64,000 nucleotides of DNA from a virus (lineage: Duplodnaviria > Caudoviricetes): the IMG/VR virus record IMGVR_UViG_3300009155_000035. One strand, given 5' to 3'. The notes under the pieces were generated by a model. It was not told the origin of the DNA and did not search any database. It worked only from the letters and a program-made list of their open reading frames with translations. Shown here piece by piece: positions 3 through 13,536 of this stretch; the stretch's first letter is position 1, and every line of letters begins with the position of its first letter. The position numbers and the translations under genes were made by a program.

Positions 3-3000
3 TGGAAAACTGTGAGCGGGTTAACAGTGGCAACCACATCACCACCTGATCCGGCCACAGGAGATCTTTGGTTTAATCCCACAACATCTCGTATCAAGGT
101 ATACGGCCCAACCAGTACAGGCCTAGGATGGGTGCCAGTGAATGCAGTCACAGTGGCCACAACTGCGCCAAGTGCTGTGATCGCAGGCGAAATATATTTT
201 AACAGCAACACCAGTCAATTTTTTGTGTACAATGGGACTGGGTGGAGCCTGATTGGCCCCGATGGAGTCAGTGGTTTTGCTACTACACGCTGGGTGAGTG
301 CTTCTTTGAATGATGTGGGCAATGTTGCCCATGCAGTGATTGAATGCACAGTTGACGGAAACATTGTTGCCATTTCCAGCGCAGACAATTTCACAATACT
401 GCCATCCCAGGCACCCACTGGGTTCACCAGTCTGGTTGAAGGTATCAATCTCAGCAGTACAGCCGTGTTAAATGGGGTCGCAACCCGGGCCACAAAGCTT
501 GAAACTGCACGTGGAATCAATGGTGTACCATTTGATGGTACTGCCAATATCACTGTTGTCAATCTTGGTGAACTAATTGCCGGCAGCTACTTGACTGGTA
601 CAAATTACAGTGGGGCTGTCAATCAAACCTGGGCAGTTGATGCAACTTCAATCAACACTGCCAGCAAGGTTGTGGCACGTGATGCCAGCGGCGATTTTTC
701 AGCTAGAACAATAGCTGCCAACCTGATTGGTAACGTATCGGGAATTGCAACCAATGTGTCAGGAGTTGTTGCCTATCAAAACGGTGGCACTGGCTACAGT
801 AGCTATTCTGCTGGTCAGATCCTGGTTGGTAACGGATCTGGTTTGGTTCGAGCATTTGTGTCCGGCACTTCACCAATTGTGGTCAACAGCACTGCCAACG
901 GTATTGCTATTTCCTACACAGGCGGTACCGGCATTGGTAATGTAACATCAGTTGGCATCACAGCAGGACCTGGCATTGGTGTGTCCGGCAGTCCAATCAC
1001 TGGTGCTGGCAATATCCTTGTTACCAACACCGGAGTAACTCAGCTAAATGCCGGGGAGGGTGTAAGCGTCAACAACGTTAACGGCGATGTCACCGTGACC
1101 AACACTGGCGTTAAAAATATTCAAGCAGGTACCGGTATATCGTTATCGGGCACCAATGCCAACCTTACTATTACTAATTCCGGGGTTACCAGGCTAGTTG
1201 CTGGTACAAATATCTCGCTGTCTAGCTCTAATGGTGTGGTTACTATTACTTCCACTGCCAGCGGAGGCGGCTCAAGCTATACACTACCAACTGCCAGTAG
1301 TACAACGCTGGGCGGGGTCAAGATTGGTCCCGGACTTGGTATCAATACTGGCGTGCTTACCAATACTGGGGTAACATCAATCATTGCTGGCAACAACATC
1401 ATTGTCAACGAAAACAATGGTTCTGTGACCATCTCGTCCACTGGCGGGGGTGGCGGCGGCACGATTGTCAGCGTAGAACTGGCAGGATCAATAAAAATCT
1501 GGGGTGGGTTAACTCCACCGGACAACTGGGCAATATGTGATGGTTCGGCTGTGAGTCGTGTTACCTATGCCACACTGTTTCAACGTATAGGCACCACATT
1601 TGGTGCAGGTGATGGTTCTACCTCATTTAACCTACCAGACTTCCGGGGAAAATTTGGGATTGGTACCAGTGCTGGTTATCCTGCAGGCAGCACTGGAGGT
1701 GCCGCAGATGCCAAATTGATTGCTCACCGACACGACTTTGTTGATCCCGCTACCGGGGCAAGATTTTTTGTCAGCAATGATAATTTAAACAGAGGTACCC
1801 CAGGCATTCCGGCCAGCTGGAATACCAACAACCAAGGCGATACGGAACCACGAATAAATAGTCCACGGCTGCAAAATGTCAATTTACCGTTTATAGGCGA
1901 GGGCCCCGAAGATCATGGGGATGCCAGTTACTATTCCTGGACCAGTACCGTGGGTGAACCTGCAACCAATAGCAACTTGCCGCCTTATTTGTCTGCCAAT
2001 TGGATCATCAAGCTCAACGATGCTCCGGTTCCTGGTGGTGGTGGCGGTGGTGGGGGTGGTAGTGGAACTGTTTATGCAGTCACAGCCGGCGATGGTCTAC
2101 TGGGCGGACAAATTACCACAGCTGGAACTATTACTGTTGACTCAACAGTGGCTAGATTAACTGTTCCCCAAACATTTACTTCTTTAAAGAGATTCACCAA
2201 CGGCATAATCAGTCAAGCCTACAATTTTACAACAGCAGGCGCAAGTATTTTTTATGCAGATCCAACATTGCCAGGATTTCAAGAACCAGTAGTGCAGATC
2301 GCAGTTAATGAAGCTTCGGCGACGCCATACGATTATGCTCACCAGTTTTACAATCAAAGATTCGTAGTAGAAGGCAGTGCAGACCCCACAACTCCAGGTA
2401 GTAATAGACCAGCAGGTGGCGCAATTATTGGCATTGACTACGGTAATACTGGCGGCGGCGGAGTGTTTGGATGGCATACCAACAACATACCGGGGCTTGG
2501 TATAGGCACCGGTGGTTACGCCACTAACATGACTTTTACTGGTGCTGTGTTTCAGGGAGTAACAGCTAGACCATCATCAGGAGACTTTGTACAAATTAGA
2601 AGCTACAGTCAAAACGATGTAGTGTTTGAAGTGCGTGGCAATGGCAATGTGTTTTATGCTGGCAGTGTAACTGCACCTGGTGCTGACTATGCTGAATATT
2701 TTGAGTGGGCAGACGGCAACCCCAACAGCGAAGATCGTGTCGGTATCTCTGTAGCACTAGATGGCAACCGTGTACGTCCAGCTGTTCAAGGAGACACGGT
2801 GTTGGGAGTGGTATCTGCTAATCCATCAATAGTGGGTGACGGCGCTGAACTGGCCTGGGCAGGTCAATACTTACACGATGATTGGGGGCGTGTGCTCACT
2901 GAAGAATATCATGCCTACAACTGGACTGATGAGAAAGGTAAACATCACTCGGTGGCCAGCTTTGAAGACACCAGTGGTGTTCCAGATTCTGCTGTAATGA

Positions 3001-3215
3001 CCACAGTAGATGGATTAGGCAACAAACTTGTGCGTCCAGTTTTGAATCCTGCCTACAACCCAGATATCAAGTATGTTCCACGAAGCAAACGTCCTGAGTG
3101 GGCGCCAGTGGGACTCATGGGCAAGTTGCGTTTGCGCAAAGGACAAGTTACAGGAGCTGGTTGGATCAAACTGCGTGACATCAGTGACACAGTAGAAGAG
3201 TGGTTGGTCAAGTAA
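3..3215 (+). CDS. Tail fibre protein (5'-truncated by window edge) with tail-collar domain and C-terminal peptidase G2-like intramolecular chaperone
   Basis: Frame is open from the window start. Repeated NTGVTxLxAGxGIS units; tail-collar motif GSIKIWGG..WAICDGSAVSRVTYATLFQRIGTTFGAGDGSTSFNLPDFRG; C-terminal GADYAEYFEWADGN...RPEWAPVGLMGKL. Confidence 0.88.
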   Translation, partial: WKTVSGLTVATTSPPDPATGDLWFNPTTSRIKVYGPTSTGLGWVPVNAVTVATTAPSAVIAGEIYFNSNTSQFFVYNGTGWSLIGPDGVSGFATTRWVSASLNDVGNVAHAVIECTVDGNIVAISSADNFTILPSQAPTGFTSLVEGINLSSTAVLNGVATRATKLETARGINGVPFDGTANITVVNLGELIAGSYLTGTNYSGAVNQTWAVDATSINTASKVVARDASGDFSARTIAANLIGNVSGIATNVSGVVAYQNGGTGYSSYSAGQILVGNGSGLVRAFVSGTSPIVVNSTANGIAISYTGGTGIGNVTSVGITAGPGIGVSGSPITGAGNILVTNTGVTQLNAGEGVSVNNVNGDVTVTNTGVKNIQAGTGISLSGTNANLTITNSGVTRLVAGTNISLSSSNGVVTITSTASGGGSSYTLPTASSTTLGGVKIGPGLGINTGVLTNTGVTSIIAGNNIIVNENNGSVTISSTGGGGGGTIVSVELAGSIKIWGGLTPPDNWAICDGSAVSRVTYATLFQRIGTTFGAGDGSTSFNLPDFRGKFGIGTSAGYPAGSTGGAADAKLIAHRHDFVDPATGARFFVSNDNLNRGTPGIPASWNTNNQGDTEPRINSPRLQNVNLPFIGEGPEDHGDASYYSWTSTVGEPATNSNLPPYLSANWIIKLNDAPVPGGGGGGGGGSGTVYAVTAGDGLLGGQITTAGTITVDSTVARLTVPQTFTSLKRFTNGIISQAYNFTTAGASIFYADPTLPGFQEPVVQIAVNEASATPYDYAHQFYNQRFVVEGSADPTTPGSNRPAGGAIIGIDYGNTGGGGVFGWHTNNIPGLGIGTGGYATNMTFTGAVFQGVTARPSSGDFVQIRSYSQNDVVFEVRGNGNVFYAGSVTAPGADYAEYFEWADGNPNSEDRVGISVALDGNRVRPAVQGDTVLGVVSANPSIVGDGAELAWAGQYLHDDWGRVLTEEYHAYNWTDEKGKHHSVASFEDTSGVPDSAVMTTVDGLGNKLVRPVLNPAYNPDIKYVPRSKRPEWAPVGLMGKLRLRKGQVTGAGWIKLRDISDTVEEWLVK

Positions 3216-3228
3216 ATTGCCAATATCC

Positions 3229-3258
3229 TTGACAAGGTATAAATAGATACTCTATAAT
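3229..3258 (+). promoter_or_regulatory. sigma70 promoter with a nested T4-late-like TATAAATA box
   Basis: TTGACA(3229)-18 nt-TATAAT(3253); TATAAATA at 3238-3245 lies in the spacer. Confidence 0.8.
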
Positions 3259-3269
3259 ATAACACAATC

Positions 3270-3383
3270 ATGAACTTATTCAGATCAATGATATCACCAC
3301 AAGGGTTACAAAAACCTTGTGGTTCATCGCCTGTTGAATCCTTCAATACATCATATATTGATCGTGACGCGGGGTCCAAGTAG
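3270..3383 (+). CDS. Putative 37-aa leader peptide (MNLFRSMISPQGLQKPCGSSPVESFNTSYIDRDAGSK)
   Basis: ATG directly after the promoter; stop codon lies inside an alternative hairpin upstream of a terminator. Confidence 0.5.
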   Translation: MNLFRSMISPQGLQKPCGSSPVESFNTSYIDRDAGSK

Positions 3384-3407
3384 AATTCGCTAGTACTATT
3401 CTACAAA

Positions 3408-3446
3408 GACCCTAGACTCGAAAGATTCTAGGGTTTTTTATTTTTT
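3408..3446 (+). terminator. Intrinsic terminator (attenuator terminator)
   Basis: GACCCTAGA / TCTAGGGTT stem followed by TTTTTTATTTTTT. Confidence 0.8.
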
Positions 3447-3450
3447 AACT

Positions 3451-3615
3451 ATGGAAACAACCAAAGAACAACGCAAACAACAACAAGAAAAGTACACACG
3501 TGAGCATACTTTGAGCCAAGATCAGCTCAAGAAACTGATCAAAGACAAGTTTGAACGTGCCAGTGCAATGTACTATTCGATAGCAAAGCGCGAATCTGTC
3601 CAGAATGACAGATGA
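3451..3615 (+). CDS. Hypothetical 54-aa Lys/Gln-rich protein
   Basis: ORF METTKEQRKQQQEKYTREHTLSQDQLKKLIKDKFERASAMYYSIAKRESVQNDR, read by hand. Confidence 0.55.
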   Translation: METTKEQRKQQQEKYTREHTLSQDQLKKLIKDKFERASAMYYSIAKRESVQNDR

Positions 3616-3790
3616 TGACCGCAAGTGTTAAACATGGTAACGAGGACCATACTGCGCACTATAAACATGCAGTGAACGGGCGGAGTCTCGGATTGAAACT
3701 GTGGCGGAAACGCAGGAGTAAAATGAGCAGTCAGGGGACGGCCCTGGCTATATTAAAGCATTTTGTAATCAGAATTCTTTAATATGGTTA
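3616..3790 (+). ncRNA. Candidate structured ncRNA, family unknown
   Basis: GC-rich non-coding island with several hairpins (ATGGT/ACCAT, GCG-GAAA-CGC, CAGGG/CCCTG) ending in a 15-bp stem 3748-3787. Confidence 0.4.
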
Positions 3791-3808
3791 AATAAAATTT
3801 GTGGATTC

Positions 3809-3837
3809 TTGACAAAACTCAGTAGAAACCATATAAT
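3809..3837 (+). promoter_or_regulatory. Consensus sigma70 promoter
   Basis: TTGACA-17-TATAAT; AAGGA RBS before ATG 3861. Confidence 0.88.
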
Positions 3838-3860
3838 ATATCATTTAACAAGGAAACTTT

Positions 3861-4760
3861 ATGACTACAACAATTACTATCAAAGACAAAGCAGTTAACA
3901 CTACATACCAAAATGTTACAGGTATCACTGGTGGTGCCGGCGCCGATGCCGCATTTGATGTTACAAAAACTAACGGAGTTTATTCCGTTGTATTAGATTC
4001 ACTAGCAGCCAGCGCAGGACATGGCTATGTTGCCGGCGATACAATTACTCTTGCTGGTACAGCATTGGGTGGCACAAGTGCTAACAACTTGATCATTACA
4101 GTTGCCACAGTTGGTACAGCAGGTAAGATTGCTACATTTGGTGTAGTAGGCACAGGCCGCATCGGTGATGGTACAGTTGATGTTGTTGTGGATGTAACAG
4201 GTACCACAGGTGTTGACACTTACACCATGGGTGGTGCTAGCACAGAATACACTCTTACTAAAACTGCCGACAATGTAAAGTTAGCCAGCACTTTGGTTAG
4301 CAACATGGAATTTAACCTTGCTGACCACGAGCGTGTTGTGTTCACAGACAAAGCCATTGCTTATGATGCCGCTGGTCGTGCTGGTGATGTATACGCATTG
4401 CTAGCAGCCGCATTAGGTACAGCAGATGTTACTAAAGCCTATGAAGGTGTCGGTATCTATCTTGCTGACGCAGGTTGGACCAACAAACAACTAGCAACAG
4501 CATTGTTGGCCACAGACACTTACAAAACTGACGCCGGTGGTGTAAGCGATGAAACATTCATCAAGCACGTTTATAAAAATGTTTTTGGTACTGATGCTAC
4601 ATTTTCTCAAGTTACAGCATACACAACATGGATGCACAATAGCAATTTAAGTCAAGCAGATGTTTTGGTGGCCGCAAGCGAATTGCCAGCGTTTGAAACC
4701 ACTATTGGCCTGGTTGGTCTTGCTACTACTGGGATCGAGTACACACCATACGTTGCTTAA
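3861..4760 (+). CDS. S-layer/RTX-like protein with DUF4214-like C-terminal domain
   Basis: Thr/Ala/Gly-rich N-terminus; ERVVFTDKAIAYD..AGDVYALLAAALG..SDETFIKHVYKNVFG resembles DUF4214. Confidence 0.6.
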   Translation: MTTTITIKDKAVNTTYQNVTGITGGAGADAAFDVTKTNGVYSVVLDSLAASAGHGYVAGDTITLAGTALGGTSANNLIITVATVGTAGKIATFGVVGTGRIGDGTVDVVVDVTGTTGVDTYTMGGASTEYTLTKTADNVKLASTLVSNMEFNLADHERVVFTDKAIAYDAAGRAGDVYALLAAALGTADVTKAYEGVGIYLADAGWTNKQLATALLATDTYKTDAGGVSDETFIKHVYKNVFGTDATFSQVTAYTTWMHNSNLSQADVLVAASELPAFETTIGLVGLATTGIEYTPYVA

Positions 4761-4783
4761 ACTTAGTTTAAACAAAGTGTCTG

Positions 4784-4808
4784 AAAGGTTGCAGTGCAAC
4801 CTTTTTTT
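4784..4808 (+). terminator. Intrinsic terminator
   Basis: AAAGGTTG/CAACCTTT stem followed by a T-run. Confidence 0.75.
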
Positions 4809-4824
4809 GCGTTAAATACACAAT

Positions 4825-6501
4825 ATGTTTGACAATTCTAAACCCAATATTATAATGCTCACTGACATAACTGATCCCATCTTGTTATCTAAGATGTTTG
4901 GGGTGAGTAAAGTTGCATGTGAATTACGCAACGCTGGATTTGAGGTTGCAGTAATAAATCACTTGCACGTTTTTAGTATTGACGAACTCAAAAACATGTT
5001 GTCGCAAATGGTGAATGAAAATACCTTGTTCATTGGGACAAGTCCATTTGTGTACAAGAATATCAGTTCCACTGTTGACTTGGGTTTTACCCACAACAAA
5101 GGTGGTGTCAGCTATGGACCCAAGGAGTGGGGATCGTTTTTGCCACATGGGTTGCATTACAATGCTGAGATCAAATCACTGGTCAAGGGTATCAATCCCA
5201 AGTGCAAATTTGTGCTTGGTGGCCCAGATGCCCAGGACCGTGAGTACGCTCGAGATTATGATTATGTAGTAATTGGTTATTCTGATAATTCAGTTATTGA
5301 TCTAGCACGTCACTTGGCATACAATGTGCCACTCTCAAACACTCGCAAAAGTTTGTTTGGTCCTGTTATCGTTGATGATCGTGAAGCCATTGGTTATGAT
5401 TTTGCCAACAGCATCATGCGTTATGAAAGCCACGATGTGATCATGCCTGGCGAAACACTAATGACTGAGATTGCACGTGGATGCATTTTCCAATGTGGAT
5501 TTTGTAGCTACCCATTGAACGGCAAGAAGAAACTGGATTTTATCAAGAGTGAAGAAGCATTGTACACCGAGTTCATGGACAACTATGAGCGGTGGGGTGT
5601 AACTCGTTATTTGTTTGTTGATGACACATACAATGACAGTGAACAAAAAGTTGAGATGATGCATCGTCTCAGCAAACGACTACCATTTAATCTTGAATAC
5701 TGGGCCACAATGCGTGTTGACTTGCTGGCAGCTCATCCTCATCACATTGACTTGCTGTATGAGAGTGGCTGTCGTGGTTACATGTTTGGTGTTGAAACAC
5801 TAAACGAAGAAACTGGAAAAATAATTGGCAAGGGCGGCAATCGAGAACGTATTGTCAAAGCCATCAACACTATAAAAGAACGCTATGGCAACAAGGTAAT
5901 GTTGCATGGAGGTTTTATCTTTGGTTTGCCCAAGGAATCCATTGATAGCATGCGTGAAACTGCCAATCGTTGTATCAGTGGCGACATCAAATTGGACAGC
6001 TATGTTTTTCATGCGTTTAGACTCATGCAACCTGGCAATAGCTATACCAGCAAATTTGACAAAGATCCTGGCAAGTATGGCTATCGTTTGCTAGGTGATA
6101 CTAAAACAGTTGACAGCAATGTTAGTGGATTTGATGCCAAAGCAGGTAATAGACTTGTCTGGGAAAACGACTACACCAACTACTATGAATGCGAAGCGTT
6201 GACCAAAGAGTTTATGGAGCTCAGTGCTTACAAAACCATGAGCAACAAGATCAATGGAACGTCAACATTTTGGTTTGCTGGCATGGGATTTAATCTAGAC
6301 TTCACTGCCAACAAAAATGTAAGTGAAGTAAATTGGCAAGTGGTTGATATACGCAAAAAACAACTAGCCAAACGATACAAAAATCAATTGTACAAAGAGT
6401 TGCAAATTTCTCCTATGCCTGTTACAATACCAACAAGCACCAAGGACAATGCTCAAATTATTGAACAAATACGCGATTTAGACTTAATGGTAAAACCCTA
6501 A
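4825..6501 (+). CDS. Cobalamin-binding (class B-like) radical SAM protein
   Basis: EIARGCIFQCGFC (CxxxCxxC); N-terminal FVLGGP B12-domain-like segment; FVDDTYN and FGVETLN motifs. Confidence 0.85.
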   Translation: MFDNSKPNIIMLTDITDPILLSKMFGVSKVACELRNAGFEVAVINHLHVFSIDELKNMLSQMVNENTLFIGTSPFVYKNISSTVDLGFTHNKGGVSYGPKEWGSFLPHGLHYNAEIKSLVKGINPKCKFVLGGPDAQDREYARDYDYVVIGYSDNSVIDLARHLAYNVPLSNTRKSLFGPVIVDDREAIGYDFANSIMRYESHDVIMPGETLMTEIARGCIFQCGFCSYPLNGKKKLDFIKSEEALYTEFMDNYERWGVTRYLFVDDTYNDSEQKVEMMHRLSKRLPFNLEYWATMRVDLLAAHPHHIDLLYESGCRGYMFGVETLNEETGKIIGKGGNRERIVKAINTIKERYGNKVMLHGGFIFGLPKESIDSMRETANRCISGDIKLDSYVFHAFRLMQPGNSYTSKFDKDPGKYGYRLLGDTKTVDSNVSGFDAKAGNRLVWENDYTNYYECEALTKEFMELSAYKTMSNKINGTSTFWFAGMGFNLDFTANKNVSEVNWQVVDIRKKQLAKRYKNQLYKELQISPMPVTIPTSTKDNAQIIEQIRDLDLMVKP

Positions 6502-6617
6502 TGCTTATAGTTAAGGCTGTGAAAGAAAGATGTCTAGCCAACTTCCCTAACTGCCAAGGGACGTACACTACCCCAATCCTCTGCAACCAATGGTTGAACT
6601 GGGTGGCACCCAGATGA
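6501..6617 (+). CDS. Putative 38-aa Cys/Trp-rich peptide (MLIVKAVKERCLANFPNCQGTYTTPILCNQWLNWVAPR)
   Basis: ATG overlaps the radical SAM stop codon (TAATG); too short for the ORF track. Confidence 0.4.
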   Translation: MLIVKAVKERCLANFPNCQGTYTTPILCNQWLNWVAPR

Positions 6618-6706
6618 GCATGATCAAGGGAAGTCAAACTCTAGGTTGGTACCCTAGGTAACATGGTTTGACTTTTAAACACACGGCAGTAGCCTTAACT
6701 ATAACT

Positions 6707-7252
6707 ATGACAGATACTTTAACATTGACATTTCGCAGTCATGAGTGCAACGGTTATCCAAAAGCACGGATATGCGTCAACGGAAATCTAGTGTGCGATC
6801 ACAGTTTTACACAAGATGTTGAAGATATCACAATTGCAATTGACAGTGTACAAGAATTCAATACACTGACCGTTGAACGCTATGGCAAAGAAAACCATCA
6901 CATGGTGTTTGAAAACAATCAAATCCTCAAGGATCAAGTTTTAGAAATCATAGGTGGCCGGGTGCGTAGCGCACGACTACCTGACTATATTTTCGACAAG
7001 CACTCGTGCTTTGAGTTTCATGGTCAAGTGCATCCAGGGTCGAGATACTTTGGGCCCAATGGCACGTGGACATTTAAATTTGGCTCGCCTGTTGTGACAT
7101 GGGCACTGGATCAAAAGATTTTGCAGGAAGCTGAGTACAATCAAGACTTTCAATATGCATGGTCCACTCAACTCGGGCCCGACAGTGCTGTTAACATATT
7201 AAAAGAGCTTGCCCAGGTCAGAGAAAAACTAGAAAAATCGGACATAAAATAA
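6707..7252 (+). CDS. Hypothetical radical-SAM-associated protein (paralog family, copy 1)
   Basis: CNGYPKARICVNG...YFGPNGTWTFKFGSP; similar to 49452-49955; ATG 6707 preferred over TTG 6668. Confidence 0.7.
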   Translation: MTDTLTLTFRSHECNGYPKARICVNGNLVCDHSFTQDVEDITIAIDSVQEFNTLTVERYGKENHHMVFENNQILKDQVLEIIGGRVRSARLPDYIFDKHSCFEFHGQVHPGSRYFGPNGTWTFKFGSPVVTWALDQKILQEAEYNQDFQYAWSTQLGPDSAVNILKELAQVREKLEKSDIK

Positions 7253-7253
7253 C

Positions 7254-8744
7254 ATGCGAGTATCTTGTTTAGCCATTGATGTTACCAATCCCGACAAGCC
7301 AGCGGCTTCGTTGGCCTTTATGTGCGGAGTATGTGAGCACCTTGACTTGGATTACCAAGCACTGAGCATCAACACCGAAATGCTGTTGCACACACATAGA
7401 GAAGACTACAATCGTGTACACAATGCACTCAAGCTAAACGACTTTGATAGACTACAACAACTATCAGATCCCATCGCAAACATCATACTAAAACAAATAC
7501 AAGACTACGGCCCAGACATAATCATGGTGTCGTTATTTTCTTGGATGCAGTTTCCGCTGGCAAAAATCATTCTTGATAAAATTCGTAGTAGTGGATGCTC
7601 GGCAGAGATCATTGCTGGCGGACCTGGTATTCAGTCCGAGGATACTGCCAAGGTCACAAATGGTAAAAAACTAGCACAGAAAAATCTAATAGACTATTAT
7701 GTACTTGGCGAAGGTGACGAAGTACTGGTTCGATTCTTGCAGGGAGAGAGAACACTGCTGGGACTCAATAGCCGCACTGACCGTTTTGGAGAATCTTGGG
7801 TTCCACAGATTGATGATCTAGATCGTCACTACGTCAAGCCAAGTTATAAAAAAATCAACCTTGATGTTTACCACAACCTTGAATACAAAGAAAAAGCAGT
7901 ACTCAGTGTCAGCACCAGCCGTGGATGTGTTCGGGCATGCAGTTTCTGCGATGTGATCAATGTGTGGCCCAAGTTTAGATACCGAAGTGGTAAATTGGTT
8001 GCCGAAGAGATTTTGCAATTGCACAAAGAAACAGGTGCTGTTAATTTTACCATTGTAGACAGTTTGATCAATGGCAGTTTAAAAAGTTTTAGAGACTTCA
8101 ATGATGAAGTTGTTTGTATAAAAGAAAAAACGCCCAGCCTAGAAAAAATGAGTTACAATGGACTGTTTATTGTACGTCCACGCAACACACACAAAGAAGA
8201 TTTGTTCAAGACCATGGCTGCCGCTGGATGTGAAAGCCTAGCAATTGGCGTTGAAACCGGCAGTGACAATTTGCGCATGCAAATGGCCAAAAAGTTTACA
8301 AACGATGACTTGGACTATCATCTTGAGATGTGTCAAAAGTACGGCATACGAAACACCATGCTGTTGTTTGTGGGTTATCCCACAGAGACACGAGATGACT
8401 TTGAGCAGACCTTGCGCATGCTTGAACGCTATCAACATTACTTAATTGATAACACAATTATATCGTTAAACTTTTCCGGAGTGTTTAGTATGTATACCAA
8501 CACACCAATATACAATGATGCGGCTCACCTGGGTATTGAAATTGTCGAAACTGACAGTCAACAAATGAAAATGTTGAATTGGGTCAACGTCAACAATCCA
8601 GATTTGACTGTTCGAGAACGCATCATGCGAGATCTTACATTTAGACAACGAGCTGCCGAACTAAGATACCCAATCCCAAATTCGGCCAGATACTTGGAAT
8701 ATCTGCAACACATTGATAAAAATTTTATTCCTGTGTCTGATTAG
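7254..8744 (+). CDS. Cobalamin-binding radical SAM protein
   Basis: SRGCVRACSFCD; IIAGGPG; GEGDE; IGVETGSD; paralog of 47996-49465. Confidence 0.88.
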   Translation: MRVSCLAIDVTNPDKPAASLAFMCGVCEHLDLDYQALSINTEMLLHTHREDYNRVHNALKLNDFDRLQQLSDPIANIILKQIQDYGPDIIMVSLFSWMQFPLAKIILDKIRSSGCSAEIIAGGPGIQSEDTAKVTNGKKLAQKNLIDYYVLGEGDEVLVRFLQGERTLLGLNSRTDRFGESWVPQIDDLDRHYVKPSYKKINLDVYHNLEYKEKAVLSVSTSRGCVRACSFCDVINVWPKFRYRSGKLVAEEILQLHKETGAVNFTIVDSLINGSLKSFRDFNDEVVCIKEKTPSLEKMSYNGLFIVRPRNTHKEDLFKTMAAAGCESLAIGVETGSDNLRMQMAKKFTNDDLDYHLEMCQKYGIRNTMLLFVGYPTETRDDFEQTLRMLERYQHYLIDNTIISLNFSGVFSMYTNTPIYNDAAHLGIEIVETDSQQMKMLNWVNVNNPDLTVRERIMRDLTFRQRAAELRYPIPNSARYLEYLQHIDKNFIPVSD

Positions 8745-8773
8745 TTGACTTTTTACATTTACTCTGTTACAAT
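8745..8773 (+). promoter_or_regulatory. sigma70 promoter with extended -10
   Basis: TTGACT-17-TACAAT with TG at the extended -10 position. Confidence 0.75.
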
Positions 8774-8779
8774 CTATCT

Positions 8780-8971
8780 ATGAAAGATATTATCACTGGT
8801 ATACTATACCTAGCAATGGGTTTGTTTTTTAATTACTACTCACGCAATTATGCGTTTGGTACATCACATTCCATGGGTCCCGGTTACTTTCCTGCTATCC
8901 TTTCAACAGGATTAATGATCCTGGGTATTTTGATTGCAAGCATTGGGGTTTATAAAAAATGGAAATCATAA
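8780..8971 (+). CDS. tctB: Short TctB-like membrane subunit (63 aa, two TM helices)
   Basis: MGPGYFP motif between two hydrophobic segments; stop overlaps the tctA start. Confidence 0.7.
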   Translation: MKDIITGILYLAMGLFFNYYSRNYAFGTSHSMGPGYFPAILSTGLMILGILIASIGVYKKWKS

Positions 8972-10443
8972 ACAATCTTGCACTGGGATTTAGTGTTGCA
9001 TCATCAATGCAGAACATGCTTTGGTGTTTTCTGGGGGTGTTCATTGGGACCATAGTTGGCATGTTGCCCGGAGTTGGTCCGCTGTCAGCCATTGCTATTT
9101 TATTGCCGCTGACCTATACTCTGGGAGATCCTGCCACTGGAATTATTTTCCTAGCTGGTATCTATTATGGTACGCAGTACGGAGGATCAACCACAAGTAT
9201 TCTGTTGAACATGCCCGGGGAGGCAGCGTCGGTGGTTACGACCATTGACGGGTACCAAATGACACGTCGTGGGCGCGGTGGTGCGGCCTTGGCAGTTGCG
9301 GCCCTGGGCTCATTTGTGGCCGGTACTTTGGCCACTGTGTTGGTCGCCTTGGTAGGCGAGCCATTGGCCAAAGTTGCATATATTTTTGGCCCAACGGAAT
9401 TTACAGCACTAATGACTCTGGGGCTAGTATCTGCTGTGGCACTCAGCAATGGTTCATTACTCAAAGGCCTAGGTGTGGTTATCATAGGATTTTTGCTGGG
9501 CATGGTTGGCGCCGACGTAAATTCTGGTGTTGTGCGATTTGACTTTGGCATTCCTGAATTATATGATGGGTTGCCTTTTCCAATCTTGGCCATGGGGGTA
9601 TTTGGACTCAGCGAAATTTTGTACAGCATGTTGCATGACAAGACTCCAAAAAAAGTAGAAATTCCCAAGATTTCAGACTTGTATCCAACAAGAGAAGAAC
9701 TCAACAAATCAGTGAAGCCTATTTTGCGTGGCACAGCCTTGGGATCATTTTTGGGATTGATTCCCGGGTCTGGTGGTATTGTAAGTTCATTTGCCAGCTA
9801 CGCAATCGAAAAGAAAATGTCAAAGACTCCCTGGGAGTTTGGCAAGGGTGCAATTGAAGGTGTTGCTGGTCCTGAAAGTGCCAACAATGCCAGCGCACAA
9901 ACAGGCTTTATTCCCATGTTGAGCTTGGGTATTCCCACTACCAGTAGCATGAGCTTGATGATGGCGGCACTGATGTCGTTTAACATACAACCAGGGCCCA
10001 TGGCAATTTCTAGCAACCCAACATTGTTCTGGGGATTGATTGTGTCTATGTGGATTGGTAACATCATGTTGGTGATTTTAAACTATCCCATGGTGGGTCT
10101 GTGGGTGCGCTTGTTGCAAATTCCAAGATGGGTTTTGTTTCCCACGGTGATTGTGATTTGCGTTGCCGGGACATACTATATCAACAATCAATGGTTCTCA
10201 GTACTGCTGTTGATACCGTTTACTATAATTGGATATCTACTCAAAGCACTGGAATGTGAACCGGCTCCAATGGCCATGGGTTTTGTAGTTGGCGCACTTT
10301 TTGAGGAATACTTGAAACGAGCCCTGTCAATCTCCGAAGGATCTTGGATGATATTCTTAAATAGTAATATTTCATTATCTTTGCTGAGTCTCACTGCGAT
10401 CTTGACAGCTTATGGGATTTATGCTAAACTACGTAAAAATTAA
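8959..10443 (+). CDS. tctA: Tripartite tricarboxylate transporter permease TctA
   Basis: GTIVGMLPGVG, GIYYGTQYGGSTTSILLNMPGE, GVAGPESANNA, LSLGIP; very hydrophobic 494 aa. Confidence 0.93.
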   Translation: MEIINNLALGFSVASSMQNMLWCFLGVFIGTIVGMLPGVGPLSAIAILLPLTYTLGDPATGIIFLAGIYYGTQYGGSTTSILLNMPGEAASVVTTIDGYQMTRRGRGGAALAVAALGSFVAGTLATVLVALVGEPLAKVAYIFGPTEFTALMTLGLVSAVALSNGSLLKGLGVVIIGFLLGMVGADVNSGVVRFDFGIPELYDGLPFPILAMGVFGLSEILYSMLHDKTPKKVEIPKISDLYPTREELNKSVKPILRGTALGSFLGLIPGSGGIVSSFASYAIEKKMSKTPWEFGKGAIEGVAGPESANNASAQTGFIPMLSLGIPTTSSMSLMMAALMSFNIQPGPMAISSNPTLFWGLIVSMWIGNIMLVILNYPMVGLWVRLLQIPRWVLFPTVIVICVAGTYYINNQWFSVLLLIPFTIIGYLLKALECEPAPMAMGFVVGALFEEYLKRALSISEGSWMIFLNSNISLSLLSLTAILTAYGIYAKLRKN

Positions 10444-10457
10444 GAAAGGAGGGCACT

Positions 10458-11045
10458 ATGCCAGCAGTATTTTTGGTCAGCGACACGCACTTTGGTCACG
10501 CTGGTGTGTGCCGCTTCACTCATCCCAACGATCCTGAAGTAAAATTACGTCCATGGACTGATCCAGATGAAATGGATGAGGAGATGGTTCGACGTTGGAA
10601 CGACCGTGTGCGTCCCAATGACAAAGTTTACCATTTGGGAGATGTTGTTATTAATCGCCGAGCATTAAAGACAGTGGGTCGGTTGAACGGGGACAAGGTG
10701 TTGATCCGTGGCAATCATGACATCTTCCGCGACAATGAGTATCGTGAGTACTTTCGTGAGTTGCGAGCATACCATGTCATGAACGGAATGATTCTTTCAC
10801 ATATTCCTATTCACACAGCAAGTTTGGGTAGGTTTGGTGTTAACATTCACGGACACTTGCACGCCACTCGTGTGATGTATGAAGATCCGTTTGACGCATT
10901 TGAGTCCAAGATTGATACACGCTATCATTGTGTATGTGTGGAACAAACTGATTTTGCACCTATCTTGTTTGAAGATGTGATCAAGCGCATCGAAGCAGAA
11001 GGTGGTAGTGTGGGTTTTAGGAACGGCAACGGTCCTACAATGTGA
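10458..11045 (+). CDS. Calcineurin-like metallophosphoesterase
   Basis: SDTHFGH, HLGDV, RGNHD, HGHLH motifs. Confidence 0.88.
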   Translation: MPAVFLVSDTHFGHAGVCRFTHPNDPEVKLRPWTDPDEMDEEMVRRWNDRVRPNDKVYHLGDVVINRRALKTVGRLNGDKVLIRGNHDIFRDNEYREYFRELRAYHVMNGMILSHIPIHTASLGRFGVNIHGHLHATRVMYEDPFDAFESKIDTRYHCVCVEQTDFAPILFEDVIKRIEAEGGSVGFRNGNGPTM

Positions 11046-11049
11046 CAAT

Positions 11050-11124
11050 CTGGCCATAGTATAATGGATAATACAGTAGCCTTCTAAGCTATCAATCTAG
11101 GTTCGATTCCTAGTGGCCGGGCCA
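11050..11124 (+). tRNA. tRNA-Arg(TCT)
   Basis: Cloverleaf by hand; loop CT-TCT-AA; encoded CCA. Confidence 0.92.
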
Positions 11125-11214
11125 AGTTATTCAGAATGTGTCAACTAAACTTGATACTAAAGCGTTATATATGTGTAGGATATAAATTCTACGTAACATA
11201 GAAGGAAACTTATC

Positions 11215-11430
11215 ATGAAATTAGTCGCAACATTGATCGCTACTGCATTTGCAGTTACCGCTTTCGCCGCAGAACCTGCCAAGAAAGAAGAAAAGAAAGC
11301 TGATGCCAAGCCTGCTGTTACAGCACCGGCCCCTGCCGCTACTGCGCCAGCAACGCCTGCTAAAAGTGAGTCTGCTAAGAAAGACGCACCTAAAGCAGAC
11401 GCCAAGGCCGCTACTCCGGCTGCGAAGTGA
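11215..11430 (+). CDS. Small secreted Ala/Lys/Pro-rich protein
   Basis: Signal peptide MKLVATLIATAFAVTAFA followed by a low-complexity tail; GAAGGA RBS. Confidence 0.7.
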   Translation: MKLVATLIATAFAVTAFAAEPAKKEEKKADAKPAVTAPAPAATAPATPAKSESAKKDAPKADAKAATPAAK

Positions 11431-11591
11431 TCTAGATGAAGGTGACTTTGTTATCGATGACGAAGTCGCCCTTGGTCGTAATCTAAGAGCACGTAATTTT
11501 GGTAAAATAGTTCATGAAAATATTGTTTTATCAGATTATGTAAATTTTAGATTATGGCTAGCTAGACAATTAGCAATGAAAAAGTATGATG

Positions 11592-11619
11592 AAGTCTGGG
11601 GGTAAAATCCCAGACTTTT
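11592..11619 (+). terminator. Intrinsic terminator
   Basis: AAGTCTGGG/CCCAGACTT stem followed by TT. Confidence 0.6.
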
Positions 11620-11626
11620 CTAATTT

Positions 11627-11716
11627 GGAAGTGTGGCTGAGCCTGGTTTAAGGCAGCAGTCTTGAAAACTGTCGCTCCGAAAGGAGCCGTGAGTTCGAAT
11701 CTCACCACTTCCGCCA
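11627..11716 (+). tRNA. tRNA-Ser(TGA)
   Basis: Loop CT-TGA-AA, long variable arm, G73, CCA. Confidence 0.93.
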
Positions 11717-11733
11717 ACTTATAAGGATTGTTA

Positions 11734-12294
11734 ATGAAGATTTCCATCACTGGACACACACAAGGAATTGGTCAAGCATTATACCAAGGTTGGGTCAAAC
11801 AAGGTCATGATGTACGTGGCTTTAGCCGAAGCAACGGATATGATATTTCCACTGACCAGGGAATTGACCAAATTGTCAACGAGTGTGTGGACTGTGATGT
11901 GTTTGTTAACAATGCATATGATGCCAGCAAGAGAGATAGCCTTGCTGGATTTGCGCAAACTGTTCTACTGTATAAATTATGGGTTGCCTGGCAAGGACAA
12001 GACCGGACCATTATTGCTGTTGGTAGTAGAATGGTAGATGCTGTTCAGCCAAGAGTGTATCCATATCTCGCACACAAGACAGCATTGGATACTGCTGTTC
12101 ATCAACTTAGACTAGTGCAACAAACTAGTCCCAAAATTTTGTATGTCAAGCCCGGCTTGATTGACACCAACATGGTTGCAAATGTCACAGGATATAGCAA
12201 GTTGGATCCACAAGAAATCTTTAACGCATGTGATTGGGCACTCAACAACCCGTCGCAAATACTTGACCTAAGCATAGGGTCTTTAGGAATCTAG
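11734..12294 (+). CDS. Short-chain dehydrogenase/reductase
   Basis: TGHTQGIG, FVNNA, YLAHK (YxxxK). Confidence 0.8.
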   Translation: MKISITGHTQGIGQALYQGWVKQGHDVRGFSRSNGYDISTDQGIDQIVNECVDCDVFVNNAYDASKRDSLAGFAQTVLLYKLWVAWQGQDRTIIAVGSRMVDAVQPRVYPYLAHKTALDTAVHQLRLVQQTSPKILYVKPGLIDTNMVANVTGYSKLDPQEIFNACDWALNNPSQILDLSIGSLGI

Positions 12295-12323
12295 TTGACT
12301 GTAAGTGACAATGGTGTTATACT
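12295..12323 (+). promoter_or_regulatory. sigma70 promoter P1 of the tRNA/ncRNA operon
   Basis: TTGACT-17-TATACT. Confidence 0.75.
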
Positions 12324-12396
12324 AGAGTTAAGTTAGAAGCATAAGTGTTCCTAATGTGCAACTGGAAAATGTTGTAAAAATACAACAAAAAAACAG

Positions 12397-12425
12397 TTGA
12401 CACAAAAAAACAAGTGTCGTACAAT
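12397..12425 (+). promoter_or_regulatory. sigma70 promoter P2 of the tRNA/ncRNA operon
   Basis: TTGACA-17-TACAAT preceded by an A-rich UP-element-like tract. Confidence 0.85.
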
Positions 12426-12435
12426 TGATACTTGC

Positions 12436-12463
12436 GCTGATAACTCAGCAATGTTCTTTAAAA
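12436..12463 (+). promoter_or_regulatory. boxB-like hairpin plus boxA-like antitermination site
   Basis: GCTGA-TAAC-TCAGC, then TGTTCTTTAAAA (rrn boxA consensus TGCTCTTTAACA). Confidence 0.6.
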
Positions 12464-12500
12464 ATTTGCATTTCATGTAGTGATCCCGGGCTTGCTCGGG

Positions 12501-12765
12501 CACTATATGTAAACACACTAAGGTTACCTACACTGTTAGGGGTGAACGAAGGGCGATTGCGTAGAAGAAATTCTCGGCCTTGATACCCATGAAGCAGGAA
12601 GCCCGAAATAGATACCTGAGCCGATACCAAAGGCAACGAGTGGTTGAAATAGGGAACAACTTCCGGGAATGCGACAGGCTAAACAGTAGGCAGTAATGAG
12701 AAAAAACGTAGGTCGCCAGGTGGTGCTGAGATTTATATCCTTCCTTAATGTGTTTTCATATAGTG
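12501..12765 (+). ncRNA. Candidate ~220-nt structured RNA enclosed by a 23-bp stem
   Basis: CACTATATGTAAACACACTAAGG (12501-12523) pairs with CCTTAATGTGTTTTCATATAGTG (12743-12765) with 2 mismatches; no convincing ORF. Confidence 0.55.
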
Positions 12766-12770
12766 AATAT

Positions 12771-12846
12771 GGTCTTAAAGTGTTCATGGACGCACGACGG
12801 CTTGTCACGCCGTAAGAGTGGGGATCGTTACCCCCTAAGACCGCCA
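12771..12846 (+). tRNA. tRNA-Asp(GTC)
   Basis: Loop TT-GTC-AC; atypical T-loop ATCGTTA; CCA. Confidence 0.85.
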
Positions 12847-12925
12847 AGTTTTGAGAGTCACATCGCCTGGACACTTCCCTCGGTGACGAAGCACTAGGTC
12901 CTGCAACCGTGACTCTCCTTTATTT

Positions 12926-13000
12926 GCTCGATTCGTCTATCGGTTAGGACATCTGGTTTTCATCCAGGCAAGAGCGGTTCGACTCCGCTATCGAGTACCA
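12926..13000 (+). tRNA. tRNA-Glu(TTC)
   Basis: Loop TT-TTC-AT; CCA. Confidence 0.92.
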
Positions 13001-13005
13001 AACAT

Positions 13006-13091
13006 GGAGATGTGGCAGAGCGGTTGATTGCACCAGACTGTAAATCTGGCCCCTAAAAAGCACGGTGGTTCAAATCCATCCATCTCCACCA
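13006..13091 (+). tRNA. tRNA-Tyr(GTA)
   Basis: Loop CT-GTA-AA, long variable region, CCA. Confidence 0.92.
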
Positions 13092-13094
13092 AGA

Positions 13095-13292
13095 ACGTTC
13101 CGGGTGTCTCCGGATAGTGTGACCCACACGATGAGAAGTAGTGTGACAACTACGGGTGGTAGTCTTCGAACCCAAAGGCCGCTGGCAATGCGAGAACGGT
13201 CCCTGTCGGGAAGCGGGTGGAAGGAGTGTGTGATGGGTATGATAGCGTCATATCTTGATACTCTATAATTACCGCCGGGGGATGCAGAGCAT
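13095..13292 (+). ncRNA. Candidate ~200-nt multi-hairpin RNA
   Basis: GC-rich run of hairpins (TCCGG/CCGGA, GTGTG/CACAC, GTAGT/ACTAC, TATGA/TCATA) directly after tRNA-Tyr. Confidence 0.45.
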
Positions 13293-13297
13293 TTTTG

Positions 13298-13455
13298 TTT
13301 TTATAGTCAAGCATCGATACAGGTATCGTTGTGGGACGCCACAACTATGCGGGCCTAACTGTGCGAGGAACAGGTCCTGACATAACTGCTATTCGCTTGT
13401 CAGAGGAAGCACCTTTGTTGACAAATCGGCATCTCTCGATGCTTGACTATAAAAA
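13298..13455 (+). ncRNA. Candidate RNA enclosed by a perfect 20-bp inverted repeat
   Basis: TTTTTATAGTCAAGCATCGA / TCGATGCTTGACTATAAAAA flanking ~118 nt with internal hairpins. Confidence 0.55.
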
Positions 13456-13458
13456 TAT

Positions 13459-13536
13459 GTAGGGATGGCAGAGTGGTCAAATGCAACGGACTGCAAATCC
13501 GTAAAGCCGTGAGTTCAAATCTCACTCCCTACTCCA
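13459..13536 (+). tRNA. tRNA-Cys(GCA)
   Basis: Loop CT-GCA-AA; U73; CCA. Confidence 0.92.

Follow-up and report, generated by a model that had tools for sequence, protein, structure and literature searches.

Control of transcription through the translation of a short leader peptide is a classic mechanism, described for amino-acid operons and a few others, in which one or a few amino acids are sensed. The enterobacterial leader-peptide attenuators include trpL, hisL, pheL, leuL, thrL and ilvL, as well as that of pheST (pheM). T-boxes bind uncharged tRNA directly and require no ORF. We know of no described case in which a leader with all 20 amino acids gates tRNA genes, and searches of full-text literature turned up neither leader peptides placed ahead of tRNA operons nor leaders with all 20 amino acids. 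The pheL leader is discussed in PMC3082878. In the Actinobacteria, stalling on the uORF of the whiB7/wblC attenuator is believed to cause antitermination (PMC10274678). whiB7 is activated by the depletion of many amino acids, tRNAs and tRNA synthetases, and it is the composition of its uORF that dictates what is sensed (PMC10274678).

The locus described here lies at positions 3229-3446 of a 64,000-nucleotide stretch of DNA from a giant lake-water phage (IMG/VR record IMGVR_UViG_3300009155_000035), the whole of which is called the window in what follows. We think it likely that this locus is a ribosome-mediated transcription attenuator, belonging to a family that leads the tRNA operon in related giant freshwater phages, and that the copy in the window is a reduced one. 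The layout and logic are those of the trp/his attenuators: a short ORF near the promoter, an intrinsic terminator ahead of the genes under control, a competing hairpin that shares a strand with the terminator and, as proposed here, the position of the ribosome as the deciding signal. What is new is a peptide of all amino acids instead of a run of cognate codons; unlike the trp/his-type systems, this phage family lacks such a run and its peptides hold one, or nearly one, of each of the 20. As in the case of pheST a component of the translation apparatus is concerned. However, in contrast to the enterobacterial attenuators, it is tRNA genes and a non-coding RNA that are regulated, ten of the cassettes are leaderless, and the device sits in a phage genome.

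In function the nearest system is whiB7, which, like the device proposed here, is a broad sensor of translation trouble, although its uORF is enriched for alanine and the genes under its control are those of a transcription factor and a resistance regulon, not of tRNAs (PMC10274678). There is no sequence relationship between the two, the leader of the window has a single Ala, and the resemblance is one of mechanism only. With the T-box riboswitches the phage device would share antitermination that reports tRNA charging and the control of translation-related genes, but it is based on an ORF and gave no T-box match in Rfam.

Organisation of the locus in the window

The following elements were identified.

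3229-3258, + strand: sigma70-type promoter (TTGACA 3229-3234, 18-nt spacer, TATAAT 3253-3258; 12/12 match)
3270-3383, + strand: leader ORF (ATG start, 37 codons, stop TAG 3381-3383, no Shine-Dalgarno)
3371-3376, + strand: 5' strand of the antiterminator outer helix (GGGGTC), within the last leader codons
3380-3404, + strand: inner hairpin of 7 bp with an 11-nt loop (GTAGAAT 3380-3386 / ATTCTAC 3398-3404), with the TAG in its 5' arm
3408-3413, + strand: 3' strand of the antiterminator (GACCCT), also part of the terminator 5' arm
3405-3446, + strand: intrinsic terminator (stem 3405-3438 of 12 bp plus a 2-bp tip, GAAA loop; T-run to 3446)

The initial annotation of this DNA had already described the promoter, the ORF, the stop codon within a stem, the GGGTC/GACCC match and the terminator, and all of them were found where it had placed them. 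Sites matching sigma70 at 12 of 12 positions are rare, four being present in the 64-kb window against 0.04 expected. The mRNA is near-leaderless, as the ATG lies only 11 nt past the -10 box, and in the absence of a Shine-Dalgarno sequence translation of the leader depends on leaderless initiation. The encoded peptide is of the shortest type in the family and contains 18 of the 20 amino-acid types, His and Trp being the missing ones, with seven Ser and one Ala; 18 types among 37 residues is not unusual when this peptide is taken alone (P about 0.17). Neither Pfam nor PHROGs returned anything above threshold for the leader peptide, and blastn with 2800-4200 as the query found nothing similar among 50,697 deposited phage genomes.

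The predicted transcript (3265-3446) is more structured than shuffled sequences (z = -4.28), and the segment 3360-3446 also folds better than its shuffles (z = -3.68). A 9-bp hairpin was also noticed within the leader ORF itself, at 3297-3322 (CCACAAGG...CCTTGTGG); a different hairpin (AAGAGA...TCTCTT) is found at the equivalent place in the leader ORF of the relative L083. This hairpin could be a pause or timing element, or be due to chance.

The antiterminator and the terminator are mutually exclusive, since the segment 3408-3413 is common to both. The complementarity between GGGTC (3372-3376) and GACCC (3408-3412) extends over 5 bp, and a match of that size within 40 nt is not significant in the sequence of the window alone; it becomes significant only because it is supported by the 37 relatives described below. 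In folding simulations of the nascent RNA the window forms the antiterminator, with its 6-bp outer helix, up to position 3432. After the 3' arm has emerged the terminator is favoured by 6.3-7.7 kcal/mol, and in the equilibrium ensemble it is essentially always formed. The value of 6.3 kcal/mol is the most terminator-biased balance among the 34 cassettes that were scored. Moreover, the antiterminator of the window consists only of the 6-bp outer helix and the 7-bp inner hairpin, has no middle helix and is the weakest in the family. The copy in the window probably terminates most of the time.

Relatives of the cassette

A total of 37 distinct homologous cassettes were found, all in contigs of uncultured phages. 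Searches with the C-terminus of the tail fibre and with ORF54, the small protein encoded behind the terminator, led to a contig carrying the cassette L083, and a DNA pattern of the junction of stop, hairpin and terminator led to L162 and later to L232, the latter being the only new relative obtained when metagenomes were scanned with the window-type pattern. A profile of ORF54 added three more distant cassettes (L165-L167). Finally, viral contigs were scanned with a motif of the conserved RNA encoded further downstream (TATAAACA-N7-AACGGGCGG or ASTATAAACA-N7-AACGGGCGG), which was matched in 64 contigs or loci. As relatives were collected through this RNA motif, cassettes without the downstream RNA are under-sampled. 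The gene for a 299-aa protein (3861-4760) was also tried as an anchor and retrieved 80 loci with unrelated upstream regions; being present in many contexts, it was useless for the cassette.

In the alignments (A1, A4 and the full-length one) the homology to the window lies in the promoter, the leader end, the strand [A/G]GGGTCC, the hairpin containing the stop codon, and the terminator.

The leader ORF and its peptide

A sigma70 promoter matching at 11 or 12 of 12 positions stands at the equivalent place in every one of the 37 cassettes, and is followed in each by an ATG-initiated ORF of 36-55 codons, as counted after doubtful N-terminal extensions had been trimmed. A conserved position of the stop codon, which the initial annotation had named as something to be looked for in related phages, is indeed a constant of the family: the ORF ends 25-35 nt upstream of the terminator arm in 37/37, with TAA as the stop in 34. 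When the leader stretch is read in the alternative frames, one of them is interrupted by a stop in 34/37 cassettes and the other in 37/37. Ten cassettes, that of the window among them, have the leaderless layout with the ATG 7-11 nt past the -10 box, and the remaining ones possess a 5' UTR in which a hairpin and a weak purine-rich site are seen.

The composition of these peptides is unusual. The full set of 20 amino acids is found in 28 of the 37, a set of 19 in five and of 18 in four; one all-20 example has only 40 residues. By chance such completeness would be expected in 0.8% of peptides of 40 residues, 1.3% at 42 and 3.7% at 48 (0.8-3.9% overall), and for this expectation random draws agree with real protein segments of the window. 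Among 147 random small ORFs of the window, all 20 are reached in just 3. The all-20 peptides are spread over five of the nine clusters formed at 50% identity. Within the largest cluster, the positions of Cys, mostly single, are distributed over 10 different columns of the alignment, those of His over 6 and those of Tyr over 9, which is what would be expected of selection for the presence, rather than the position, of a residue. As far as the sequences can tell, the composition of the leader peptide is under selection across the family. In 24 of the 37 cassettes the amino-acid set is already complete upstream of the antiterminator strand. Among the close relatives of the window, L083 has 19 types in 36 residues, L232 has 18 in 33 and L162 has 20 in 42; the leader of L232 carries an in-frame deletion of 9 nt, and all three share the compact leaderless design of the window, with length changes that are in frame.

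No run of any one residue was found in the leader peptides, so that the usual criterion for an attenuator, an enrichment in codons of the sensed amino acid, is not met. The absence of a run had led the initial annotation to suggest that the signal may be general ribosome stress. The absence holds throughout, and the suggestion can be sharpened, given that in 28 of the 37 cassettes the leader holds every amino acid. At the eight loci that were compared, the leader codons were not enriched, relative to phage protein genes, for codons read by the phage's own tRNAs, and the idea of a leader tuned to those codons was dropped for this reason. What is sensed seems to be amino-acid classes or general decoding speed. 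The tripeptide RVR, considered as an arrest motif, was rejected, as there are relatives in which these nucleotides belong to a different reading frame.

Most relatives carry a GGAG(G) tract, resembling a Shine-Dalgarno sequence, 5-9 nt before the last sense codon (for instance L172, 464-569, minus strand), and this last codon is often ATG or GTG, followed by TAA. The tract, which the window lacks, is part of the middle helix of the antiterminator in most relatives. It might slow ribosomes, or let them bind again, at the leader end.

Alternative folding of the leader RNA

The initial annotation had also proposed that pairing between GGGTC and GACCC should be looked for as covariation in related phages. 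This was borne out by alignment A4, in which [A/G]GGGTCC (columns 48-54) pairs with GGACCC[T/C] (columns 111-117) in 94.6% of the cells. Its outermost pair is found as A-U (21 sequences), G-C (seven) and G-U (seven), and, this one included, three pairs in total show changes on both sides. None of 500 shuffles reached the score for covariation, and a shift of the partner by a single column abolishes the signal. The covariation is nevertheless good and not conclusive evidence, because the shuffle control ignores the relatedness of the sequences. Independent support comes from the strand [A/G]GGGTCC, which encodes Gly-Ser/Phe, Arg/Trp-Val or Gly-Leu according to the lineage. Its conservation in three reading frames points to a constraint on the RNA and not on the peptide.

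When the nascent RNAs were folded up to the 5' arm of the terminator, a nested antiterminator stem appeared in nearly all relatives. It is made of the outer helix, a middle helix (GGAG paired with CUUC or CUCC) and an inner hairpin with the stop and the sense codon preceding it. One continuous helix of 12-13 bp makes up the antiterminator of L195 and L207. The inner hairpin is always present, even though the sequences that form it in the different lineages are unrelated (mean z = -2.79), and the stop codon is paired in its 5' arm in 28/37 cassettes. With each fold enforced, the difference between antiterminator and terminator has a median ddG of -2.2 kcal/mol and ranges from -5.2 to +2.7 kcal/mol when the window is excluded. 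On these modelled energies the two folds are nearly equal, which is the balance expected of a switch.

The terminator stem shows compensatory changes among the relatives (CCCTAGA/TCTAGGG, CCCTGG/CCAGGG and CCCCAGG/CCTGGGG), and its loop and the spacer are better conserved than is usual in a simple terminator. Nothing corresponding to the anti-antiterminator or the pause hairpin of trp was identified. Hairpins are found in the 5' UTR of most relatives and, in the window, within the ORF (the 9-bp hairpin mentioned above), and no pairing between these and the antiterminator strand was found. As no 1:2 anti-antiterminator or pause hairpin could be recognised, an untranslated leader should result in read-through and not in super-attenuation.

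Genes and RNA downstream of the terminator

Two conserved elements follow the terminator in the window.

3451-3615, + strand: ORF54, a small conserved protein of unknown function (54 aa), with homologues 3' of the terminator in about half of the cassettes
3620-3790, + strand: conserved structured RNA of unknown class (two hairpins, AACGGGCGG and a closing long stem)
3634-3650: hairpin 1 of this RNA, loop AACGAGG
3651-3673: hairpin 2 of this RNA, loop CACTATAAACA
3675-3683: conserved strand of this RNA, AACGGGCGG

ORF54 starts 4 nt past the T-run and can therefore be reached only by read-through. In the window it has no Shine-Dalgarno sequence, having lost the AAGGA ribosome site that its homologues carry, and no Pfam or PHROG family was assigned to it above threshold.

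About 49 distinct copies of the RNA were found in viral contigs, nearly all of them heading tRNA arrays (L165-L231 included). Both hairpins were recovered by alifold from 49 sequences, and the stem of the hairpin with loop AACGAGG covaries (GGUAACGAGGACC versus GGAAACGAGGUCC). The second hairpin, with the loop CACUAUAAACA, is followed by AACGGGCGG and then by a long variable stem that ends near UAUUAAAGC. A search of 3150-3900 against Rfam gave no family at the gathering score or with E up to 5; matches to NsiR1 and Yfr10 (19-20 bits) are at chance level and were discarded. For an RNA placed right behind the gate of a long untranslated operon, a role in processive antitermination or in processing might be suitable, although there are no data that test it.

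In 30 of the 37 cassettes a tRNA on the same strand lies 200-970 nt 3' of the terminator and heads an array of up to 37 tRNAs; five of the remaining seven have too little sequence for the linkage to be judged. The interval between terminator and tRNA holds the conserved RNA, preceded in about half of the cassettes by an ORF54 homologue. In those cassettes in which the RNA lies within about 15 nt of the terminator, no further promoter would fit in between, and the RNA can consequently be made only by read-through.

Unlike most of the family, the cassette of the window is not directly upstream of a tRNA array, the first tRNA being 7,611 nt downstream. In L232 and L163, DNA with 88-94% identity to positions 12451-13521 of the window, where the tRNA region of this phage starts, comes immediately behind the tail fibre, the cassette and ORF54; in both, the cassette adjacent to the tail fibre abuts the homologue of 12451-13291. 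From this adjacency it follows that in the window about 8.8 kb separates the cassette from the tRNA region. Besides the motif RNA and the 299-aa gene, this stretch (3620-12450) includes two genes of the radical-SAM type, transporter genes and a gene resembling those of phosphoesterases, and it has promoters of its own and a strong terminator (4783-4805). A second, canonical cassette was looked for beside the tRNA arrays of the window and was not found. In its ancestral form the device leads the tRNA operon and not ORF54, and in the window nothing but ORF54 and the RNA at 3620-3790 is within its reach. The proposal of the initial annotation that the phage couples translation to the expression of ORF54 and of the downstream RNA fits in so far as these two can be gated here, but the ancestral target is the tRNA operon, and the antiterminator is weaker in the window than in any relative.

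Some further observations concern these surroundings. The 12.8-kb contig that carries L083 has a second cassette (L163, 161-265, minus strand) with a 41-residue leader of only 16 amino-acid types; the two cassettes are on the same strand and flank a tRNA block on either side, which suggests that some phages gate successive tRNA blocks separately. The 299-aa gene is highly conserved and often comes directly after tmRNA or a tRNA. In many of the loci L001-L080, about 30-90 nt upstream of its homologues, the promoter is overlapped by a long palindrome (GTGCGTACACGCAC or GTGATCCGGATCAC) that looks like an operator. Upstream of the gene in the window (3809-3837) there is a perfect promoter and the palindrome is absent.

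Proposed mechanism and alternative explanations

In the mechanism proposed here the strong sigma70 promoter would produce a short mRNA in which the leader ORF is translated first. The last leader codons, the stop and the spacer are predicted to fold into the antiterminator, the base of which would occupy half of the terminator 5' arm. If no ribosome is present at the leader end when the terminator is being made, the antiterminator would hold and transcription would continue. A ribosome that reaches the last roughly 8-10 codons would instead melt the 5' half of the antiterminator and free GGACCC, the terminator would form, and transcription would stop. A ribosome delayed within the first roughly 35 codons, or one that was never loaded, would leave the antiterminator closed and permit read-through. 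The spacing of 25-35 nt between stop and terminator may serve to keep a terminating ribosome off the terminator. As each amino acid occurs in the leader, in most cases once or a few times, a shortage of any charged tRNA would delay the ribosome and open the gate. The leader would in effect be a test of the whole aminoacyl-tRNA supply, by which the phage tRNA genes would be switched on.

That the leader is translated, that its translation decides termination and in which direction the switch works are inferences, there being no expression data and the direction having been derived from the geometry. The trp/his-type logic that had been attributed to the locus, with a finished leader leading to termination and a lagging ribosome to read-through, fits this geometry in all relatives, and no experimental data bear on it. 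For the fuller picture, a tRNA operon made on demand, we would put the chances at about even: a delay in decoding, caused by the loss of host tRNAs or by a tRNA-cleaving defence, would bring about the synthesis of phage tRNAs, and smooth decoding would turn it off, while the copy in the window, uncoupled from this task, would carry out its test on behalf of ORF54 and the RNA.

Several features specific to the window leave room for another explanation of this particular copy. Its balance is the most terminator-biased of the 34 scored (+6.3 kcal/mol), its antiterminator is lost once the 3' arm is made, its peptide lacks two amino acids, 7.6 kb separate it from the tRNAs, and the ORF54 behind it is without the AAGGA ribosome site of the homologues. 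It could be that it descends from a tRNA-operon attenuator and no longer switches, yielding only a leader RNA of roughly 175 nt and a peptide, with basal leak-through to ORF54 and the RNA. This we hold to be unlikely, though it cannot be dismissed. The promoter is nevertheless perfect, the ORF intact, the stop still in a hairpin and the 6-bp outer helix kept. Moreover, decisions in attenuation are kinetic, and the nascent RNA does form the antiterminator up to 3432. The relatives L083, L232 and L162, for their part, keep the same compact design through in-frame changes of length.

An attenuator working through the ribosome also has to be weighed against two further explanations. The locus might be an ordinary small gene or small RNA having its own promoter and terminator, with nothing being sensed and the GGGTC/GACCC match being incidental; in a single sequence chance alone should produce a 5-bp complement, it is common for genes to end in terminator stems or near them, and a strongly structured attenuated transcript (z = -4.28) is also sRNA-like. 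We find this highly improbable in view of a pairing that covaries and is kept in three reading frames, of two folds that are balanced in energy across the family and of the fixed linkage to tRNA arrays, while the all-20 composition with its wandering Cys, His and Tyr speaks for selection on decoding and not on a folded protein. Very little weight is likewise given to a genuine switch that is set by a factor binding the hairpins (a protein such as ORF54, an RNA or a tRNA), or that works with reversed polarity. In its favour stand the conservation of the terminator loop and spacer, the GGAG(G) tract that most relatives have inside the antiterminator, and ORF54 and the RNA as conserved neighbours of unknown function. 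However, ORF54 is missing from about half of the cassettes, and the universal ORF, the 25-35 nt spacing and the all-20 composition would all be left unexplained.

Biological significance

If the ribosome-mediated attenuator is real, it would reveal the way in which large phages control their tRNA arrays, so far an unanswered question, and the tRNA supply of the phage would be linked to the state of translation in the host. It would also represent a compact natural sensor of general decoding speed. The copy in the window, for its part, would show how such a device decays or is put to another use after genes have been inserted behind it.
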